Below, piece after piece: positions 53,692-62,697 of a DNA stretch of 64,000 nt. How positions within the stretch are numbered: the stretch's first letter is position 1; every line of letters begins with the position of its first letter. The position numbers were made by a program, and so were the translations under genes. The notes below the pieces were generated by a model. That model had not been told where the DNA came from and ran no database searches. It was given only the letters and a program-made list of their open reading frames with translations. The DNA lies in contig OZ242374.1 in NCBI GenBank assembly GCA_965209055.1, positions 5,856,001 to 5,920,000 of the forward strand, written 5' to 3'. Source of the stretch: Acidobacteriota bacterium. Lineage in GTDB: Bacteria > Acidobacteriota > UBA6911 > RPQK01 > JAJDTT01.

Positions 53692-56379
53692 TCAAAAGGA
53701 GTACTTGAGCGCGACCTCGATCTCGCGGGAGCGATGGGCCCCGAAGATCTTTCCGAAGAGCGAGGTCCCGACGACGGCGTTGGGCTGGCGGAAGTTGACC
53801 TGGTTAAAGGCGTTGAAGAGTTCCACGCGAAGCTCCACGAGATCTCCGTTGACCAACCGGGTCTGCTTGATCAGGCTGATGTCCCAAGCATGATATCCGG
53901 GACGCCTCAGGATGTTCCTTCCCGAATTGCCGAAGGAGTAGGGCGCCGGCTCGGCGAAGTCCTCCACCGGGAACCACATGTCCACCGAGGAGTCGAACCG
54001 GTCGCCCGGCGTCATGGCAATTCGATCCGCCCGGTCTCCTCCGAGTCCATCGTTATTCCCGTCGCCCGGCACAAAAACGCTGAAGGGCGTCCCGTCCTGG
54101 ATTCGGGTGATGCCCGAGAGCCGCCAGCCGTCCACCAGCTGCAGCAGCGGGTTCCGTCCCTCGCCACCCAGCGTCCGCTCCCTTCCCGGCGGCAGGTCGA
54201 TGATGTAGTTCAAGGAGAACTGGCGAATGGGAACCCCCCGGGCGGAAGCTCGTTCGGCCTTCAGATCTCGCGGGTTCGACGGTTCGCGGCGATAGCGGTC
54301 GTCCAGTGAACGGTGGAACGTAAAGGCGGAACGGAGAGACATGCCGTCGCTCAGACGGCGCTCCGCCGACATAATCATCCGGTGGCTGCTCCCGGATGAT
54401 GCGCCGGTCAAGATCCGAAACCGGCCGAAATCAGGATTCGGCCGCCGGGACTGGATCGGACCGGGCGCCGGGAGCGGTATGTTTCCCGGGAGGACCCGGC
54501 TCCACCCGGTCCTCTTGTTTCCATAGTAGGAGGCCCGCAGGTGCCACACCTCCTGGAAGTCGTTCTCGAGAATCAACGTCCAGGCCTGCACATAAGGCGT
54601 TCTCAGTCCGGTCTCGATCCCGCGGACCACCAGTTCGGGAGGCGCCACGTTCTCGAAGGGGTTCGCCAGGTCCAGATCGGGACTGTCCACGGGGGATTGG
54701 GCGCTTTCCGTGTAGTAGAAGGGATAGTTCTTCCCCAGATAGCGGCTGAAATTACTGCTCCCCACCACCGAATAGTAGAGAGAGTACGAGGCCCGGAACA
54801 CCAATCTGTTGGTCCTGAAGGGCCGGTAGGACAACCCGATCCGGGGGGCCCAGTCGTTGCGGTCGGGGAACACCATTCCGCCCCGTCCCGCCCTCTCCAG
54901 GCCCAGGGACCGGGCTTCGAAGCTGTCGGCAACGACGATCCGGCCCGAGGCCGGGGGCTCGAAGAGGAGCGGAAAGAAACCGGAGATGGTATCGGTGTTG
55001 GACCGGTAGGGAGACGCGTAATGGTAGGCAACGCCGCCTGTCAGCGCCAAAATCGGACTCAACCGCCAGCGGTCCCGGATATAGGCCTGCCACTGGTTGC
55101 GCCGCAAGTCGGTCCTGTCCGATCCCACCGTCCGCGAGGCCACACTGGGCAGACCCAGAACGAAATCCGCAAACCCGTCACCGGTGTAGAACCCGCTGAA
55201 TTCGAATTCGCCGCGGCCGCGGCCTTCGATGTGCGTGTCGTTGACCTGGCGTTGGGTCAGGCTCGTTCCCATGGTCAGGGTGTGATCCCCCAACGCCGTG
55301 GTGGTGGAGAACGAACCGGAGTACCGGTTGCTGAGCCACTTGTAAGGAGATGATGAATCCCCGAAGGAGGCGTAACCCGTGACTTCGAAATCCGGATATC
55401 CTTCGGTCAGGGCGTCGGGAGCGGCCAGGCCCGAAATCCCCACCGAATCCAGCAAACCCACTTGGCCGGAGTTGGGAGACACGCTCAGGCTCAGGTAGCG
55501 GTTGTATCCTATGGAGCCTTCGGTGACCCAGCGGGTCCCCAAGGTCCGGTTGTGGGAGAGGCTCACGGATTGGCTGCGGAGCGTCCGATCCCAGCCGAAG
55601 GCGGGAAGCGGATGAACCAACTTCCCGTCACCGTCGGTCAGCTCGTACTGGAGATAGCTCCTGGCATCGTCGTCGCCGGTATAGTCGACGCGAAAGAGGT
55701 AGGTATCCCGGTTGGTCACCCGGGGCTGGTTGTTGACGAAGTTCCGGTCGGGGTCCGGGCTATTGGGGTCGGGAATGACCCGGAATAGATTCCTGGCGAC
55801 CGGATGCAGCCGGCTCCGGGGAATCTGATTTCCCGGAAACGGCTCTCCCGTCAGCGGATCGACGATGGGGGCTTCGAGACTGCTGAAATCGCCCTGCTTC
55901 ATCTCCGGCGCCGGCACATGCGAGAGCAGAGTCGAACCCTTGATGATGCGCAGGCTCTGGAGACTTCCGAAGAGTTGGATCTTGTCTCCGACCCGGGCGC
56001 CCAGGCTGGCTCCGAACTCGTTCCTCTTGTACTCGGGAAGCGGTTTCCCTCCGGGATCGAAGAAGTTTCGGGCGTCGAGGTTGTCGTTCCGGTGAAACCA
56101 GTACACCGAGCCGTTCAGTCTCCCGGCCTGTTTCGCCGGAAAAGGGTTGATCATCTCCGATAGCGAGGGGGCCGGAGTCGAGGCGGCCGTTTCGCGAGCC
56201 AGTCCGACCTGGTAGTCGCGGATCTGATCCAGGGCGCTCTTCCCGGAACGTCCGCCACTCTCCTGGGAGGCGACTTCGGCCTTCTTGGGCTCGGCCCGGG
56301 CCGAACCCTGATGCCAGAGGCCGAGCACGAGCCCGAAGACGAGCATCGATTTCAAGAGGCGGGAAACACTGGTGCCCAT
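53692..56379 (-). CDS. Oar-type TonB-dependent-receptor-like barrel lacking the N-terminal domains
   Basis: Signal peptide from ATG 56379; GSVYWFHRNDNLDARNFF, DRNDWAPRIG, FGNSGRNIL, ELFNAFNQVNF; C-terminal beta-signal ALKYSF. Confidence 0.85.
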   Translation of the reverse strand: MGTSVSRLLKSMLVFGLVLGLWHQGSARAEPKKAEVASQESGGRSGKSALDQIRDYQVGLARETAASTPAPSLSEMINPFPAKQAGRLNGSVYWFHRNDNLDARNFFDPGGKPLPEYKRNEFGASLGARVGDKIQLFGSLQSLRIIKGSTLLSHVPAPEMKQGDFSSLEAPIVDPLTGEPFPGNQIPRSRLHPVARNLFRVIPDPNSPDPDRNFVNNQPRVTNRDTYLFRVDYTGDDDARSYLQYELTDGDGKLVHPLPAFGWDRTLRSQSVSLSHNRTLGTRWVTEGSIGYNRYLSLSVSPNSGQVGLLDSVGISGLAAPDALTEGYPDFEVTGYASFGDSSSPYKWLSNRYSGSFSTTTALGDHTLTMGTSLTQRQVNDTHIEGRGRGEFEFSGFYTGDGFADFVLGLPSVASRTVGSDRTDLRRNQWQAYIRDRWRLSPILALTGGVAYHYASPYRSNTDTISGFFPLLFEPPASGRIVVADSFEARSLGLERAGRGGMVFPDRNDWAPRIGLSYRPFRTNRLVFRASYSLYYSVVGSSNFSRYLGKNYPFYYTESAQSPVDSPDLDLANPFENVAPPELVVRGIETGLRTPYVQAWTLILENDFQEVWHLRASYYGNKRTGWSRVLPGNIPLPAPGPIQSRRPNPDFGRFRILTGASSGSSHRMIMSAERRLSDGMSLRSAFTFHRSLDDRYRREPSNPRDLKAERASARGVPIRQFSLNYIIDLPPGRERTLGGEGRNPLLQLVDGWRLSGITRIQDGTPFSVFVPGDGNNDGLGGDRADRIAMTPGDRFDSSVDMWFPVEDFAEPAPYSFGNSGRNILRRPGYHAWDISLIKQTRLVNGDLVELRVELFNAFNQVNFRQPNAVVGTSLFGKIFGAHRSREIEVALKYSF

Positions 56380-56441
56380 CCAGATTCGGTGATGCGCGTT
56401 CCTCTGGCGGAACGAAGGATCAGCAGAGCGATGGGGTGGGA

Positions 56442-57146
56442 TCACAACACGAGCGCCCCTTCCACCAACATGTCGGAAACCGAGAAATTGACGCGCAACC
56501 GGCGGTAAACCGACGGGATGTTGACCTCGAAGTTGACTTCCTTCTGGTCCGGCGAGACGACCGGGACACCATCGATCCGGCGGGGAAAGACGAACTTGGC
56601 CCCCACCGCCTCCTCCCGGGGGGCAAAATAGGCGGCCAGTTCGACCCGCGGAAAGCTCTCGGTGGCCAGATACGCCCGGTCTCTCATGGTCTCCAGCGTC
56701 TGGGAATCGAAGAAACGCTTCACTCTGAGTTCCATGTTGGGGTTGTTGGACCGGAAACTGATGGTGACCACGATCCAATGGCTCACGTCCATGTTCAGGC
56801 CGGGGGCAATGCCGGCATCGAGACGGCTCTTTGCCGCCGGGGTCATCTCGTCGTAGCCGTTCTGAATCTGTTGAATGCGGGCATAGGCCCGGCGAATGGG
56901 CGGGGCCGAAAGCAGCCGCACGAAGAAGGAATTGAAGATCTCCTTCTCCCCGTGAATCCCGCTGCCGACGCCTCCTACGACCCGGGTATAGGTCTGCTTT
57001 CGGGCCCAGGGAGACCGGTTCAGAATCCGGGTGGCTTCAGCCAGCGTCCAATTGGAAAATTTTCTTTGCAGAATCTGCTGCGGGTCCGGGACGGCGGCGC
57101 CCACCGACAGGAAGAGCGACAAGATCAGACCCGTTCGCAGCAGCAA
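56442..57146 (-). CDS. Hypothetical exported protein
   Basis: Signal-like N-terminus; WTLAEATRILNRSPWAR motif; probable TTG start at 57146 after GAGGAG (track start 57173). Confidence 0.75.
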   Translation of the reverse strand: MLLRTGLILSLFLSVGAAVPDPQQILQRKFSNWTLAEATRILNRSPWARKQTYTRVVGGVGSGIHGEKEIFNSFFVRLLSAPPIRRAYARIQQIQNGYDEMTPAAKSRLDAGIAPGLNMDVSHWIVVTISFRSNNPNMELRVKRFFDSQTLETMRDRAYLATESFPRVELAAYFAPREEAVGAKFVFPRRIDGVPVVSPDQKEVNFEVNIPSVYRRLRVNFSVSDMLVEGALVL

Positions 57147-57317: not shown

Positions 57318-58853
57318 TCAGGTTCCCGACGAACCGATGGTTTCGGGCTTGTAGCCTCCCCGCGAGCGGAAATAGCCGATCAGGACCAGGTAGCAGGCCA
57401 GCATGACGAGGGGAAGCACGGCGATCCTGGCCAGCGTTCCCTGCTTGGAAACCACCACAACCTCGCCGACGCGCTCCCGGTTCTCCTGGTCGAGACTTCC
57501 CAGAGCGGCCTGATCCAAGGCGTTGTACCGGCCCAGAAGCCCCAGCTTCTCGGTCATGACCCGGGCATGCAGGGCCTGGTCTTCCTGTTTCATCAGGCGA
57601 TCGAACGCCTGGTCCTGAAAGGTGCCGATGAGGGGTCCGCCCAGGACCCCCACCGCCAGCATCCCGACCCCGGCGATGGCGTTCAGGGTCAAGGCCCCGC
57701 CGCGGGGAAAGGACTCGCTCACGACCCCCAGGGTCGCCGGCCAGAAGAAGGTCTTGCCCACGCCGTAGAGCGTGGCGGCCAGGAAAATCACGGAGGCGGC
57801 CTGGCCGGCGGAAGACAACCAGAAAAGGCCGGCGGCGGCGATGAGGGCCGAAACGGCCAGCAGGCCCAAGGGGGAGATTCGGTGGATGATGGGGCCCGCG
57901 AAGAAGCGGAGGACGAACATGATGAGGGACGTGTAGATCAGGACCAGGGCGCCGGCGTCGGGACTGGCCAGCACGGAACTCATCAGGTCGGCGATCCAAC
58001 TGTCGGTTCCCAGTTCGGTCGTCGCCAGGGGCATCATGATCAGCAGCAGGAAGACGAACATGGGCCGTCCCAACGAGCGGACGAAGTAGACGAACGCGGC
58101 CGTCGGCGCCACCACCAGCACCACCTTCATCCAGGGCTCGAGCGCGCTCTGGTGGACCAGCAGGATCTGGTCCAGTCCCTGCACCAGCAGATAGCAGACG
58201 ATCAGGCAGCTCGCCGCGCCGAATTCCCGGAGCATGTCCAGGTAGGGGACGCCGGCGGCCACCCGCTCCTGAACGGGAAACTTCCGGCCCAGCAACAGGA
58301 ACCCGTAAAGGACGGTGGGAATCACCACCAGGCCCACTTTCCATTGCCACAGGCTGCCGGAAAGCCCTCCCGGCGTGTCCCCCGTTCCCAGGGTCATGGC
58401 CAGGAGGCCGCCCAGGACCAGGCCTCCGGGCCAGCCGGCGTGGAGCACGCTCAGGTAGTGCGTTTTCTGCTTGTCGTAGATGGTGGCCACCACGGGATTG
58501 ATCACCGCTTCGACGATCCCGTTGGAAAGGGCGAACAGGAAGGTGCCCAAGTACAGAGTCGAGAAGTCTTCGGCGAAAATGGTGATCACGGCCGACGCCA
58601 AGTGACCCGCGAAGGCGAGCACCATGGAGACTCCGTAACCGATCCGGTCCACTACCAGACTGAAGAGAATGATGGAGATGGCGAAGGGATAGAGGCCCGC
58701 TCCCACCAGGTACCCGATCTGCTCTCCGCTGAGATTGAACTGGGCCCGCCAGTCATCCAGGATCATGGCCCGCACGACGAATCCGAACGCGGTGGCCACC
58801 AGCGCAAAGAAACATCCCAGAAACAGCCTTCGCCCACCGCTTCCATTCGACAT
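57318..58853 (-). CDS. MFS transporter (probable sugar transporter)
   Basis: VDRIGYG, NGIVEAVINP, LHAGWPGGL, ELGTDSWI, GKTFFWPATLG; multiple TMs; GAGGTGG RBS. Confidence 0.88.
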   Translation of the reverse strand: MSNGSGGRRLFLGCFFALVATAFGFVVRAMILDDWRAQFNLSGEQIGYLVGAGLYPFAISIILFSLVVDRIGYGVSMVLAFAGHLASAVITIFAEDFSTLYLGTFLFALSNGIVEAVINPVVATIYDKQKTHYLSVLHAGWPGGLVLGGLLAMTLGTGDTPGGLSGSLWQWKVGLVVIPTVLYGFLLLGRKFPVQERVAAGVPYLDMLREFGAASCLIVCYLLVQGLDQILLVHQSALEPWMKVVLVVAPTAAFVYFVRSLGRPMFVFLLLIMMPLATTELGTDSWIADLMSSVLASPDAGALVLIYTSLIMFVLRFFAGPIIHRISPLGLLAVSALIAAAGLFWLSSAGQAASVIFLAATLYGVGKTFFWPATLGVVSESFPRGGALTLNAIAGVGMLAVGVLGGPLIGTFQDQAFDRLMKQEDQALHARVMTEKLGLLGRYNALDQAALGSLDQENRERVGEVVVVSKQGTLARIAVLPLVMLACYLVLIGYFRSRGGYKPETIGSSGT

Positions 58854-58988
58854 GAATCCACCTCTCTTCTGTTGAACCGGAACCGGAGCCGGTCCCGCCG
58901 CACCCGGAAATTTTGAGGGACACCCCGCCGAGAGTCAATCGACCCGGCAAGCCACGGACAGCACCCGCTAGGGGTGCCCCAATGCGCC

Positions 58989-59011
58989 GGCGGCTGGAAA
59001 GCCGCCGCTCC
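58989..59011. repeat. REP-like palindrome
   Basis: GGCGGCTGGAAAGCCGCCGCTCC, same family as the 4367 and 40880 copies. Confidence 0.7.
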
Positions 59012-59046
59012 ACCTTGGTAGGATTTCGGCGGCAAGACCACGCGAG

Positions 59047-61515
59047 ATGGAGACCACCTGCGTCATTCTCTGCGGCGGACACGGTAGGCGCATGGGCTCC
59101 TCCCGGCACCACAAGGTCTGTTTCCCCATCGCCGGAGTCCCCGCCATCGTCCGCATCATCGACACTCTCAAGTCCGCCGGACTGAAGCATTTTCTCCTGG
59201 TCGTGGGCCAACGGGCCGTCGACGTCATGGAAACGGTGACCCGGGTCCACCCCGATGTCTCCTTCGCATACCAACCCGAAGCGCTGGGGACAGGGCACGC
59301 GGCCAGGTGCGCCGCCCGGGTCCTGCGCGACCGGCGTGCCGGCGGCGACGTCCTGATCACCATGGGAGACAAGGTCATCGAGGCCCAGGTGGTGCGGGAC
59401 CTGATGGAACGCCACCGGTCGGAAGCTGCGGACCTGACGCTCGCGGCTCTCCCCAAGGAGACGGAAAGCAGCGCCGGCCGGATCCTGCTGAACTCGGAAT
59501 CGAGACCCCTGGCCGTGGTCGAGGTGGCCGACATCCACCGCTCGTCGGAGACCGGGATCCCCATCACGGTCGCGGGAAAGGAATTGTCCGCCGCCGGGAT
59601 CGAGTCGGGAAGCCGATTGCTCAACACCTCCCTCTATCTCTTCAGAGGCGAATCCCTGCACTCCTCCCTGGCGGCCCTCGCGGCCGACAACGCCCAGCAG
59701 GAACTCTACCTGACGGACACGGTCGAGCAGGTTTCCGCCCACGGAGGCGCCACTTCGGTGCTGGAGGTGGCCGACCCACAGGATCTCATGGGGTTCAACA
59801 CCCCGGAGGAGTTGCTCCGGATCGAGGAGGCGCTGGGCCGGCGCAAGCCTCTTGGCGGGGGTCCCGCGGAGCCTCTCCCGCAGATCGACCCGAGCCGTCT
59901 GAAACCGGCCGGCGAGTGGTTGGAGATCCTGAACCGGAACCCCCCGTCCCTGCGGCGGTCTCTCTCGCAGGTATACGGCTCCGGCGGAGTCCTCCTGGAA
60001 CCGCGCATTCGCGCCTGCCGTCGCCTGGTGGAACGTTTCGTCGAGAGCCACGGCGCGGCGCGCCCCATGGTGCTGGCGCGGGCTCCGGGACGTCTCAACC
60101 TCATGGGACGGCACGTGGACCACCGGGGCGGGTACGTGAACACCATGGCCATCAACCGGGAGATCCTGTTGGCCGCCTCTCCCCGGGCAGACGACAGCGT
60201 CACTCTTCGGCACCTCTCTTCGGACGAATTTCCCGAAAGGACCTTTCGCATCCGCGATCTGTTGCCCGACACCGACTGGCTGGCCTGGATGGACTTCATC
60301 AGTTCCTACACCGTCAACCAGTTTCTCAGCGTCTCACGGGGAGATTGGAGCAACTACGCCCGGGCCGCCGTGCTGCGACTCCAGCACGCCTACCCTCACC
60401 GCAGGTTGCGGGGAATGGACTGCGTCGTCTGGGGGGACATCCCCCTGGGCGCCGGCCTCTCCAGCAGCTCGGCTCTGGTGGTGGCCATGGCGGAGGCGTC
60501 GGTGGCCCTCAATCAACTGGCTCTGAGCACACGGCAATTCGTGGATCTGTGCGGCGAGGGGGAATGGTTCGTCGGGTCCCGCGGCGGAATCGCCGACCAG
60601 GCCGCCATCCGCGGCGGGGAGAAGGACAAGGTCAGCAAGATCGGGTTCTTTCCGTTCCGGATCGAAGAGACCATCGACCTGCCCCGGGAGCTGTCGGTCA
60701 TCATCGCCAACAGCCGGACCGCCGTATCCAAGAGCCACGAGGCCCGGCACACCTTCAATCACCGGGTGGCCTGCTACGACCTCGCGGAGATGTTGCTGCG
60801 CAAGCACGCTTCCTTTCTGGGAGCCATGAAGCACCTCAGGGACCTGGACCCCGGCAAGCTGGGCCTGTCTCAGGCCGAGATCTACCGCCTGCTGAAACAG
60901 TTGCCCCAGCAGACCGGCCGCCGCGGCATTTTGAAGCAGTTGCCGGACCAGACCGAACGAGTCGGGGAGATCTTCTCGACTCACGACGACCTGGGGGAAT
61001 ATCCCCTGAGGGGGGTCGCTCTCTTCGGCGTCACCGAGTGCCGGCGCAGCGACCGGTTCTCCCGGCTCCTGAAGGACCGCCGGTTCGCCCGGATCGGAGA
61101 GATGATGCGGGTCAGCCACGACGGCGACCGCATCGTCCGGCATGACCAGGACCGGCCCCGTCCTCATTCCACCGCCTGCGGCGACCTGCAGTTGGACCGC
61201 CTGATCCGGGACTCCTTCTCCCCGGATCCCGCCAGGAGAGAGCGCGCCCGCCTCTGGATGCAGCCGGGCAGCTATGCCTGCTCCACGCCCAAAATCGATC
61301 GGATCGTGGATCTGGCCTGTGCCCAACCGGGGGTCGTGGGGGCTCAACTTTCAGGTGCGGGCCTGGGGGGCTGCGCCATGATCCTGGTCCGAAGCGCGGC
61401 GGTGGAGCGGACACTGAAACATCTGACCCGTGCCTGGCATGAAGCCCAGGGCCTGGAGGTCGATGCCTATGTCTGCCGGCCGGTGGCGGGAAGCGGACTC
61501 ATCGACTGCCGGTGA
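59047..61515 (+). CDS. Fusion of a GlmU-type nucleotidyltransferase domain and a galactokinase-like GHMP kinase
   Basis: N-terminal ILCGGHGRRM..HKV, QPEALGTGHA, DNAQQELYLTD, GFNT; C-terminal APGRLNLMGRHVDHRGG, IPLGAGLSSS, GIADQ, GAQLSGAGLGGC. Confidence 0.9.
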   Translation: METTCVILCGGHGRRMGSSRHHKVCFPIAGVPAIVRIIDTLKSAGLKHFLLVVGQRAVDVMETVTRVHPDVSFAYQPEALGTGHAARCAARVLRDRRAGGDVLITMGDKVIEAQVVRDLMERHRSEAADLTLAALPKETESSAGRILLNSESRPLAVVEVADIHRSSETGIPITVAGKELSAAGIESGSRLLNTSLYLFRGESLHSSLAALAADNAQQELYLTDTVEQVSAHGGATSVLEVADPQDLMGFNTPEELLRIEEALGRRKPLGGGPAEPLPQIDPSRLKPAGEWLEILNRNPPSLRRSLSQVYGSGGVLLEPRIRACRRLVERFVESHGAARPMVLARAPGRLNLMGRHVDHRGGYVNTMAINREILLAASPRADDSVTLRHLSSDEFPERTFRIRDLLPDTDWLAWMDFISSYTVNQFLSVSRGDWSNYARAAVLRLQHAYPHRRLRGMDCVVWGDIPLGAGLSSSSALVVAMAEASVALNQLALSTRQFVDLCGEGEWFVGSRGGIADQAAIRGGEKDKVSKIGFFPFRIEETIDLPRELSVIIANSRTAVSKSHEARHTFNHRVACYDLAEMLLRKHASFLGAMKHLRDLDPGKLGLSQAEIYRLLKQLPQQTGRRGILKQLPDQTERVGEIFSTHDDLGEYPLRGVALFGVTECRRSDRFSRLLKDRRFARIGEMMRVSHDGDRIVRHDQDRPRPHSTACGDLQLDRLIRDSFSPDPARRERARLWMQPGSYACSTPKIDRIVDLACAQPGVVGAQLSGAGLGGCAMILVRSAAVERTLKHLTRAWHEAQGLEVDAYVCRPVAGSGLIDCR

Positions 61516-61539
61516 ACGGCGGGAGGAAGACGGGAAAAC

Positions 61540-62697
61540 ATGGAACCCACCCGCTTTGAAGGACGAGACGTTCGGACCGGGCGATCCATCTCCGTGGGCG
61601 TGACGGGTGAGACCATCGCCGATGTCCGGACCGGGAATCGCGCCGGGTCCGGACCCTGGATCGCTCCGGCCCTGTTGGACATCCAGCTCAACGGCTTCGG
61701 CGGTTACGGGTTCAATGAAGCGGAGACCTCGCCGGAATCGGTGGCGAGGGTGGTCCGAAGTCAGTGGAGGGCCGGGATCGGCGCCTTCCTGCCGACCGTC
61801 ACCACCCACTCCCAGGACAGGATGCTCCATTCCCTGAGGGCCATCACGGCCGCTTGCCGGGACCCCGGCACCCGCCGCTCGATCCTGGGAATCCATGTGG
61901 AGGGTCCCCACATCTCACGGCTGGACGGCCCCAGGGGAGCCCACCCGCTGGAACATGTCCGGCTGCCCTCGTGGGACGAATTCCTCCGGATGCAGGAAGC
62001 CGCCGAAGGCGGAATCCTCCTGGTGACGCTGGCGCCGGAGCTGGAGGGGGCCATCCCCTTCATCGAACGCTTGGCGGAAGCAGGGGTCGTGGTCGCCATC
62101 GGTCACACCAACGCCTCGGCGCACGATCTGGACACCGCCATCAGGGCCGGCGCCCGTCTCTCGACCCACCTGGGAAACGGAGCCCACTCATTGCTTCCGC
62201 GGCATCCCAACTACATCTGGGAGCAACTGTCCAGAGACCGGCTCGACTGCAGCGTCATCGCCGACGGGCATCACCTCCCCGCCTCGGTTCTCAAGTGCAT
62301 TCTGCGGTGCAAGGGAGTGGAGCGCACCATCCTCATCAGCGACGCCGTCACCCCCGCCGGACTCCCCCCCGGCACCTACCCGGCGGCGGGAGGAGCGGTG
62401 GAGGTGGCCGCCAACGGCCGGATCTCCCTGGCCGGTACGCCATACCTGGCCGGGGCCGGGGCCCACTTGTGCCAGGGCGTCTCCAACCTGGTCCGCATGG
62501 GCGTGGCCTCCCGTCGGGACGCCCTTCGGATGGCGAGCCTGAATCCCGCCCGCCTCCTGGCTCGGGACGACCGGATGGGAGCCCTGGAAGCGGGAAAGCT
62601 GGCCCACCTGATTCAGTTCTCATGGACGGAGGAAGGGATCCGGGTCCATCGAACGGTACTCGGCGGTCAGGTGGTCTTCGACGACGGCGCCGTCTGA
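61540..62697 (+). CDS. nagA: N-acetylhexosamine-6-phosphate deacetylase family
   Basis: DIQLNG, GIHVEGP, GAH, TLAPE, GHT, THLGNG, IADGHH, ISDA, NPA. Confidence 0.85.
   Translation: MEPTRFEGRDVRTGRSISVGVTGETIADVRTGNRAGSGPWIAPALLDIQLNGFGGYGFNEAETSPESVARVVRSQWRAGIGAFLPTVTTHSQDRMLHSLRAITAACRDPGTRRSILGIHVEGPHISRLDGPRGAHPLEHVRLPSWDEFLRMQEAAEGGILLVTLAPELEGAIPFIERLAEAGVVVAIGHTNASAHDLDTAIRAGARLSTHLGNGAHSLLPRHPNYIWEQLSRDRLDCSVIADGHHLPASVLKCILRCKGVERTILISDAVTPAGLPPGTYPAAGGAVEVAANGRISLAGTPYLAGAGAHLCQGVSNLVRMGVASRRDALRMASLNPARLLARDDRMGALEAGKLAHLIQFSWTEEGIRVHRTVLGGQVVFDDGAV

Follow-up and report, generated by a model that had tools for sequence, protein, structure and literature searches.

A natural fusion of a GlmU-type uridylyltransferase with a galactokinase-like GHMP kinase in Acidobacteriota: a candidate N-acetylhexosamine-activating enzyme in a genus without canonical glmU

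A 64,000-nucleotide stretch of an Acidobacteriota genome (contig OZ242374.1 of assembly GCA_965209055.1; hereafter the window) carries an 822-residue open reading frame (ORF) in which a GlmU-type uridylyltransferase is joined to a GHMP kinase resembling galactokinase (GalK) and N-acetylgalactosamine (GalNAc) kinase. Its product belongs with the Fkp-type fusions of a pyrophosphorylase with a GHMP kinase, and we lean slightly towards reading this protein as a bifunctional N-acetylhexosamine (HexNAc) 1-kinase and UDP-HexNAc pyrophosphorylase, which would convert N-acetylglucosamine (GlcNAc), or another HexNAc, to HexNAc-1-phosphate and then to UDP-HexNAc. Moreover, the fusion may have replaced the normally universal glmU in its own genus. 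The genome of origin (G000) is a single contig, 98.4% complete and flagged for 7.4% contamination. In window coordinates, the fusion and its parts are:

59047..61515, plus strand: fusion ORF, 822 amino acids (aa), GlmU-type sugar-1-phosphate uridylyltransferase plus GalK/GalNAc-kinase-like GHMP kinase (Pfam, NCBIfam and PDB matches, AlphaFold2 (AF2) model)
59047..59847, plus strand: N-terminal uridylyltransferase domain, residues 1-267, without a left-handed beta-helix (LbH) (Pfam, NCBIfam, alignment)
59848..59874, plus strand: low-confidence linker, residues 268-276, predicted local distance difference test (pLDDT) below 50 (AF2 model)
59875..61512, plus strand: GHMP kinase domain of the long, eukaryote-like GalK/GALK2 type (Pfam, PDB alignment, Foldseek)
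60106..60132, plus strand: sugar-binding signature GRHVDHRGG, residues 354-362 (aligned to GEHxDY of GalK and GALK2)

With 1914 homologues at E<=0.001 and an AF2 model, built on 50 family members, of mean pLDDT 90.3 (predicted template modelling score 0.70), the ORF is a genuine gene and no chance frame. By Pfam, residues 5-233 form an NTP_transf_3/NTP_transferase domain, followed by GalKase_gal_bdg (329-379), GHMP_kinases_N (436-521) and GHMP_kinases_C (734-797), and PF10509, PF00288 and PF08544 each score above the Pfam cut-off. An earlier note, made from the letters of the window alone, had described an ORF of this length with a GlmU N-terminal domain and a GalK-like kinase instead of the beta-helix, and all its observed details were correct: the motifs QPEALGTGHA (76-85), DNAQQELYLTD (214-224) and GFN (249-251) are present, the coordinates agree with a nagA-type gene 24 nt after the fusion and a divergent major facilitator superfamily (MFS) gene, and Pfam and NCBIfam models place a uridylyltransferase and then a GHMP kinase, the Pfam scan giving no hexapeptide or LbH match in the fusion. 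At the start of the gene (59047-59091), close relatives in the protein database are mostly annotated at 807 aa, seemingly starting at Met16, which would lose the conserved LxGGxGxRM motif; these starts are probably miscalled, because tblastn shows the first 15 codons to be conserved.

In the transferase domain, GlmU models of NCBIfam match residues 2-267 only, against profile positions ~2-249, and score the fusion at 110-127 bits, far under their cut-offs, the best value (127) being that of the N-domain alone, for which GlmU models are the top-scoring ones. TIGR01173 (GlmU) gave 109.8 bits for the whole fusion and 115.2 bits for the N-domain alone, the cut-off of 366.85 not being reached. Beyond residue 277, the chain in the AF2 model passes through helices into the kinase fold, with no LbH domain. 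When the N-domain was aligned with one canonical GlmU of the sister genus and four distant fusions, the residues common to the fusion and GlmU were L8, G11, G13, R15, K23, Q76, G81, T82, G83, A85, G107 and D108, together with G144, R145, E159, N193, N215, E219, Y221, D224, N251 and E255. Thus, the LxxGxGxR, K, Q..GTGHA, GD, GR, E, N and NAQxEYYxTD motifs of GlmU are all present in the fusion, and the motif positions are retained in 44-50 of 50 aligned fused members. We equate these shared residues with those that bind UTP, Mg and GlcNAc in Escherichia coli GlmU, and on this alignment the transferase domain reads as GlmU-like at every conserved position.

Regarding the kinase domain, the closest solved relative by Foldseek was human GalNAc kinase 2A2C (E 1.8e-26; TM-score 0.83 on the target), followed by Gal3p and Gal1p and then by human, lactococcal and archaeal galactokinases (TM-scores 0.82-0.87 on GalK targets). 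The top PDB match by sequence was likewise 2A2C (E 1.7e-32), with GlmU chains matching the N-domain; none of the 39 PDB matches at E<=0.001 was named fucokinase, 'AbGHMP' (PDB 9ULX) was a weak match, and the ESM Atlas returned unnamed GHMP clusters only. The human relative would fit a GalNAc-specific, Leloir-like route, in which GalNAc would pass through GalNAc-1-phosphate to UDP-GalNAc and a 4-epimerase would then give UDP-GlcNAc, as for human GALK2 plus AGX1. JGI calls several members of the family 'N-acetylgalactosamine kinase', and in 8 of 86 loci compared, an NAD-dependent epimerase/dehydratase is encoded no more than five genes away from the fusion (no more than two away in 6 of the 8). 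However, the epimerases that were typed came out best as TviC-like and not as GalE-like, and the loss of glmU from this genus, described below, requires GlcNAc-1-phosphate as a transferase substrate; consequently, we regard the GalNAc-specific route as unlikely.

The top NCBIfam kinase match was galactokinase TIGR00131, at 164.1 bits for the whole fusion and 166.7 bits for the kinase domain. Together with the Pfam galactose-binding signature, this would fit the salvage of a neutral hexose (galactose or others), or of a broad range of sugars, the GlmU-like domain acting as a promiscuous UDP-sugar pyrophosphorylase. This is a very unlikely reading in our judgement, since the galactokinase scores fall below the cut-off of 226.65, the galactokinase motif G-E-H-x-D-Y with its Glu is absent from the fusion, which has G-R-H-V-D-H at the aligned position, the transferase domain keeps GlmU-specific and not GalU-type motifs, and no association with GalT or GalM stands out (one aldose 1-epimerase among 105 neighbours).

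The GRHVDHRGG signature was aligned by HMMER with G-E-H-I-D-Y of human GalNAc kinase and yeast Gal1p, and with G-E-H-T-D-Y of human GALK1. Among the 50 aligned fused members, the catalytic R349, H356, G361, E506 and the GHMP motifs are invariant, motif II (P466..S475; PxGxGLSSSA type) being represented by P466, G470, S474 and S475 and motif III (G770-G775) by G770, G772 and G775; R355 is found in 49, H359 in 48 and the catalytic D517 in 48 members, and position 360 carries R in 32 and Q in 17 of them. Both substitutions pointed out previously, E to R and Y to H, are real and form a signature of the family. A regular expression recovered the motif in 59 of 69 representatives of at least 700 aa and in 51 of 79 shorter ones. 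Arg occupied the motif position in 58 of the 59 longer proteins, and the 51 shorter ones had Arg (34), Met (7), Val (4), Lys (3) or other residues (3); therefore, Arg is a signature of the fused forms and is not universal in the subfamily. Furthermore, the fusion has F-N-x-R at 570-573, aligned with the F-N-x-R of GALK2, where GalK presumably has Tyr. A conserved Asp of the fusion kinase is, we assume, the GalK Asp that pairs with O3/O4. Recycling of N-acetylmuramic acid (MurNAc) by an AmgK/MurU analogue was considered and set aside, as this Asp is kept and a separate MurU-like gene exists.

In GalK, the Glu of the motif contacts the sugar, and the motif of plant galacturonokinase differs from that of GalK; the H-[IV]-D-H-[QR]-G-G motif of the family seems to resemble that of plant galacturonokinase. 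In this context, Arg355, which replaces the Glu of GalK and GALK2, would suit an anionic C6 group, and the kinase might take a sugar bearing such a group (N-acetylgalactosaminuronate (GalNAcA), N-acetylglucosaminuronate, galacturonate, glucuronate (GlcA) or a 6-sulfo sugar), which Arg355 would bind, for salvage to the UDP-sugar. The near-constancy of this Arg in fused forms speaks for such a specificity, as does the existence of a zebrafish pyrophosphorylase::glucuronokinase fusion, described in PMC3938481. Against it, Met, Val, Lys or other residues take the place of Arg in 17 of the 51 motif-bearing stand-alone kinases, the transferase domain keeps all GlmU motifs, and the best match is a human GalNAc kinase. 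Specificity for acidic sugars, as put forward in the earlier note, is quite unlikely when gene neighbourhoods and the genus-wide absence of canonical GlmU, presented below, are also considered.

The fusion belongs to a large unnamed family, mostly from Planctomycetota and relatives. The best 120 of the 1914 homologues measure 721-876 aa (118 of them 798-876 aa) and all carry nucleotidyltransferase, galactokinase-signature and GHMP-N domains, 108 also having GHMP-C; the few source names among the best homologues are Planctomycetota, Phycisphaerae or Lentisphaerae. With the kinase domain alone as query, 443 clusters (50% identity) were retrieved at E<=1e-30. Fused forms in this set measure ~790-910 aa and kinases standing alone ~500-560 aa; for the few proteins that are longer still (1022-1314 aa), Pfam gave nothing informative on the extra domains. 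In a sample of 301 Acidobacteriota genomes, the full-length fusion was found only in the window's own family, in 7 of 7 genomes besides its own, and other matches covered a single domain only; these tallies include an unpublished genome (G049), which no conclusion relies on. One of the seven, G230 of the sister genus, has the fusion in two pieces (298 + 572 aa) with a 419-aa DDE-transposase ORF between them (L015, G230:C5 9051-13076), and it also has a canonical GlmU, a combination that we count in favour of the proposed HexNAc function. Among 301 Planctomycetota genomes, 15 gave a match at E<=1e-60, partly to fused copies and partly to kinases alone; Armatimonadota, one Spirochaetaceae genome and a candidate phylum likewise hold fused copies. 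Stand-alone Planctomycetota kinases were seen beside hexapeptide-repeat (LbH) proteins in 2 of 7 loci (L121 9828-10775; L122 5606-6319), and beside inositol-monophosphatase-family proteins in another 2 of the 7 (L119 1877-2875; L121 10842-12005).

TIGR01173 finds nothing better in the window's own genome than the fusion (108.5 bits), which is followed by MobA-, RmlA-, GalU- and IspD-like proteins and LbH proteins. A survey of 61 genomes of the order, including 6 of the own genus and 5 of the sister genus, revealed the fusion only in all six genomes of the own genus (105-115 bits with TIGR01173), and canonical GlmU (548-561 bits) plus the fusion in all five of the sister genus; of the other 50 genomes, 21 were above the GlmU cut-off and ~24 had N-only, split or partial matches at 236-340 bits. 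The conserved flanks of the sister-genus glmU region have their counterparts at positions 5107262-5108563 and 5108732-5111947 of G000, only 168 bp apart, which indicates a clean deletion of glmU. When the halves of the sister GlmU were compared with G000, the N-half had the fusion as its best match (28% identity, E 1.9e-21), and the C-half matched a 247-aa LbH protein (G000 4271848-4272591; 26.5% identity, E 8.6e-9). Since the genome retains glmS (775 bits) and carries glmM twice, the de novo route still needs a uridylyltransferase, and from the deletion of glmU it follows that the transferase domain of the fusion probably also serves this route. Such a genus-wide deletion would be hard to explain with a domain specific for acidic sugars. 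As a search for an alternative uridylyltransferase, UDPGP (PF01704) gave no match in the own genome, control genomes being equally silent.

The two glmM copies (G000:C1 25356-26672 and 621716-623032; 467.5 and 465.9 bits) may represent a duplication or an assembly effect, given the flagged contamination. At the glmU locus of the sister genus (L115, G250:C12 8332-12348), a 196-aa ORF, glmU and a 577-aa gene lie between the conserved flanks, and a homologue of the 577-aa gene is found elsewhere in G000 (5422235-5423929). In families f5 and f6 of the order, many GlmU N-domains stand alone in ~250-aa frames (236-266 bits), and several of these genomes have a separate ~310-aa frame matching the C-terminal hexapeptide region only, so that GlmU seems naturally split there.

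Outside the phylum, the fusion is the only GlmU-like match in two genomes (G588 and G304), GlmU and the fusion occur together in G302 and G443, and an N-only GlmU accompanies the fusion in G301. In the Planctomycetota sample, 238 of 301 genomes had a GlmU match at E<=1e-55, and such a match was missing from 9 of the 15 genomes with the kinase subfamily versus 54 of the 286 others (Fisher p 0.0008, in a test that ignores relatedness and genome completeness). As a tentative proposal that we rate somewhat below an even chance, the fusion would have displaced GlmU in its own genus, and probably in several planctomycete and spirochaete lineages, with the sole GlmU-type uridylyltransferase of the cell tethered to a HexNAc 1-kinase, the de novo and salvage routes converging on one enzyme and glucosamine-1-phosphate (GlcN-1-P) being acetylated by an unlinked protein.

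The remaining features of the locus are listed below.

61540..62697, plus strand: nagA, N-acetylglucosamine-6-phosphate deacetylase (NCBIfam, alignment to E. coli NagA)
57318..58853, minus strand: MFS transporter, 511 aa, divergent from the fusion (Pfam, NCBIfam)
58854..59046, no strand: divergent intergenic region of 193 bp between the MFS gene and the fusion (sequence)
53692..56778, minus strand: outer-membrane beta-barrel, 1028 aa, PF25183, TonB-dependent-receptor-like, downstream of the MFS gene (domain match)

The fusion ends with a TGA stop at 61513-61515, and the 24-nt spacer to nagA, on which recQ converges, holds a purine-rich GGGAGGAAG stretch; nagA is probably co-transcribed with the fusion. 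A scan for promoters and terminators, which performed at chance level, gave a sigma-70-like match ahead of the MFS gene (minus strand, 58938-58910) and a terminator-like site 3' of it. NagA scored 222.3 bits, just under the TIGR00221 cut-off of 225.65, and aligned with E. coli NagA (1YMY) over residues 33-378, keeping equivalents of QxN, the metal-binding Glu, His143, His195, His216, Arg227, His251 and Asp273, with Tyr223 changed to Ser. Assuming that these residues have the same roles as in E. coli (metal, catalytic and phosphate-binding Arg), the protein, encoded by the sole nagA of its genome, is an ordinary GlcNAc-6-phosphate deacetylase and no specialised paralogue. The same genome has one ROK kinase and a NagB-like gene (140 bits).

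The MFS protein gave weak NCBIfam matches to several unrelated subfamilies; its relatives outside the genus are 57-71% identical at closest, the few named by taxon coming from Pirellulales and other Planctomycetes, and none of these relatives bears a functional name beyond 'MFS transporter'. Within the genus, this protein is 94-97% identical, above the 86-96% of the fusion, and its family (~510-570 aa) is uncharacterised. The whole block PCMT-barrel-MFS-fusion-nagA-recQ is kept in the own genus, which says little at 86-96% identity, and in the two sister-genus loci examined, the barrel gene, the fusion, nagA and recQ are retained and the MFS gene is missing. Beyond the family, 80 metagenome loci with fusions 33-58% identical to that of the window were compared. 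A NagA homologue was found in the flank of the fusion in 6 of them (L038, L045, L072, L089, L108 and L111; fusions 36-50% identical), next or nearly next to it in 4, which is a lower bound because many of the contigs are only 3-6 kb long. Neither the MFS gene nor the outer-membrane barrel was detected in any of the 80 loci (0/80 each), and the barrel is near the fusion in both genera of the own family and in no other locus. Consequently, of the conserved MFS-fusion-nagA linkage expected in the earlier note, the nagA part stands in part and the MFS part is confined to the genus; its suggestion that the MFS imports the kinase substrate found no evidence in these data.

Unbiased clustering of 762 neighbouring ORFs from 86 loci revealed as recurrent neighbours GFO/IDH/MocA oxidoreductases (9 loci), the NAD-dependent epimerase/dehydratases already mentioned (8), NagA (6), nucleotide-sugar dehydrogenases (5, adjacent in 3), Wzz-like proteins (4), and Wzy, flippase and FGGY kinase (3 each). 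Pfam families were also counted for the adjacent ORFs (105 of 131, after removal of 26 that were short or truncated); no partner dominated this tally (top families GFO_IDH_MocA, 4, Amidohydro_1, 4, and UDP-sugar dehydrogenase, 3), and no uronate-catabolic family was among its 25 most frequent families, which argues against an anionic sugar. Typing of nucleotide-sugar genes by best matches, all below equivalog cut-offs, gave in L099 the order TviB-like UDP-GlcNAc 6-dehydrogenase (469 bits), fusion, TviC-like (296), FnlA-like (504; UDP-GlcNAc 4,6-dehydratase-like) and WbcJ-like reductase (417). Furthermore, a TviB-like gene overlaps the fusion start in L079, UDP-ManNAc-dehydrogenase-like genes occur in L070 and L081, a TviC-like gene in L080 and a UDP-GlcNAc 3-dehydrogenase-like gene in L010. 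Five of these loci (L099, L079, L070, L080 and L010) are read as operons combining the fusion with UDP-GlcNAc-using enzymes. By these assignments, the typed neighbours would all take UDP-GlcNAc or a direct derivative as substrate, and NagA, the FnlA-like and the UDP-GlcNAc 3-dehydrogenase-like neighbours point to GlcNAc. In L048, L049, L050 and L058, a 639-654-aa protein with weak Wzz/GNVR matches directly follows the fusion, with Wzy- and flippase-like genes nearby, a context that suggests surface-polysaccharide clusters.

Taken together, activation of a free sugar directly to a UDP-sugar, as the earlier note had proposed for this pairing of kinase and pyrophosphorylase, is most likely, because both catalytic motif sets are conserved in the 50 members, and a HexNAc substrate is the most economical reading. 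The C-terminal GHMP kinase would phosphorylate the anomeric hydroxyl of free GlcNAc, possibly GalNAc, with ATP, and the N-terminal GlmU-type domain would join the HexNAc-1-phosphate to UMP from UTP, giving UDP-GlcNAc. In most lineages, the enzyme would supply UDP-GlcNAc for envelope and surface-polysaccharide synthesis, and in the own genus, with canonical glmU deleted, its transferase domain would probably also be the de novo uridylyltransferase. The probably co-transcribed NagA would take the catabolic branch of the same sugar, from GlcNAc-6-phosphate to glucosamine-6-phosphate; fusion and NagA would then have the sugar in common and form no linear pathway.

Several observations weigh against activation of HexNAc by the fusion, or against its replacement of GlmU. 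Besides Arg355, three loci (L099, L079 and L080) pair the fusion with TviB/TviC-like genes making UDP-GalNAcA, which fits salvage of an acidic HexNAc, and the immediate neighbours are otherwise very diverse. NagA requires a 6-phosphate, which is not a product of the fusion, and no GH20 hexosaminidase was found in the own genome. Regarding the replacement, three fusion-free genomes (G112, G631 and G635) have no GlmU match at E<=1e-20, and two others have a C-terminal GlmU piece only (G033) or a fragment only (G617). Moreover, no GlcN-1-P acetyltransferase was confidently found in the own genome, the best candidate being the protein 26.5% identical to the GlmU C-domain. A MurU/mannose-1-phosphate-guanylyltransferase/Arch_glmU-like protein of 336 aa (G000 1733766-1734776) could make UDP-GlcNAc instead; it is not specific to the genus, since all 61 genomes surveyed in the order have it.

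Peptidoglycan, lipid A and many surface polysaccharides are built from UDP-GlcNAc, and GlmU is commonly seen both as a drug target and as the route by which bacteria universally make this precursor. If the proposed function is true, the fusion would represent an uncharacterised amino-sugar branch in Planctomycetota and relatives and in some Acidobacteriota, and in some lineages it may be the sole uridylyltransferase for the UDP-GlcNAc step, which would amount to the rewiring of a pathway that is generally taken to be universal and essential among bacteria. It would also offer a ready one-enzyme catalyst for UDP-HexNAc analogues, now made with NahK plus GlmU or AGX1, and the conserved Arg in the predicted sugar pocket would be a clear target for specificity studies. 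According to a 2026 preprint (10.64898/2026.06.23.733835), Staphylococcus aureus uses a non-GlmU uridylyltransferase.

Among known systems, GlmU itself has all the conserved uridylyltransferase motifs of the N-terminal domain, and differs by an LbH acetyltransferase domain where the fusion has a GHMP kinase. Human GALK2 (PDB 2A2C/2A2D) resembles the fusion kinase in being of the long GalK type, with comparable insertions and F-N-x-R at the aligned position, although it has G-E-H-I-D-Y where the fusion family has G-R-H-V-D-H and Foldseek identity is only 23-24%. With the UDP-GalNAc pyrophosphorylase AGX1/UAP1, GALK2 carries out a two-step salvage of HexNAc to the UDP form, as proposed for the fusion; however, the human pyrophosphorylase is a separate UDPGP-family protein and is not GlmU-type. 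Bifidobacterium NahK plus GlmU (used together and in engineered fusions) and Pseudomonas AmgK-MurU convert HexNAc or MurNAc to the 1-phosphate and then to the UDP-sugar, NahK and AmgK being phosphotransferases of the aminoglycoside-kinase fold, not GHMP kinases. Both systems are similar to the fusion in the proposed chemistry and differ in being separate proteins in nature.

In architecture, Bacteroides Fkp and Arabidopsis FKGP likewise have an N-terminal pyrophosphorylase and a C-terminal GHMP anomeric kinase and convert a free sugar to an NDP-sugar, yet their kinase and transferase subfamilies seem to be others and their nucleotide is GDP; Fkp is treated as a related natural kinase-pyrophosphorylase fusion in PMC11982464. 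Zebrafish DrGKUP, as described in PMC3938481, combines an N-terminal bacterial-type nucleotidyltransferase of ~260 aa with a C-terminal GHMP sugar-1-kinase and uses UTP, but it has 619 aa, a plant glucuronokinase-type kinase and GlcA as substrate; in bacteria, that paper reports relatives of the transferase domain as stand-alone proteins only. PMC11267548 presents an engineered GalK-uridylyltransferase chimera, and states that natural salvage fusions carry the pyrophosphorylase N-terminally. Literature searches found no natural GlmU-type::GalK-type fusion, in line with the earlier note, to which the combination was not known as a characterised bacterial pathway. In brief, the fusion adds a variant to the kinase-pyrophosphorylase fusions already known, such as Fkp and zebrafish GKUP.

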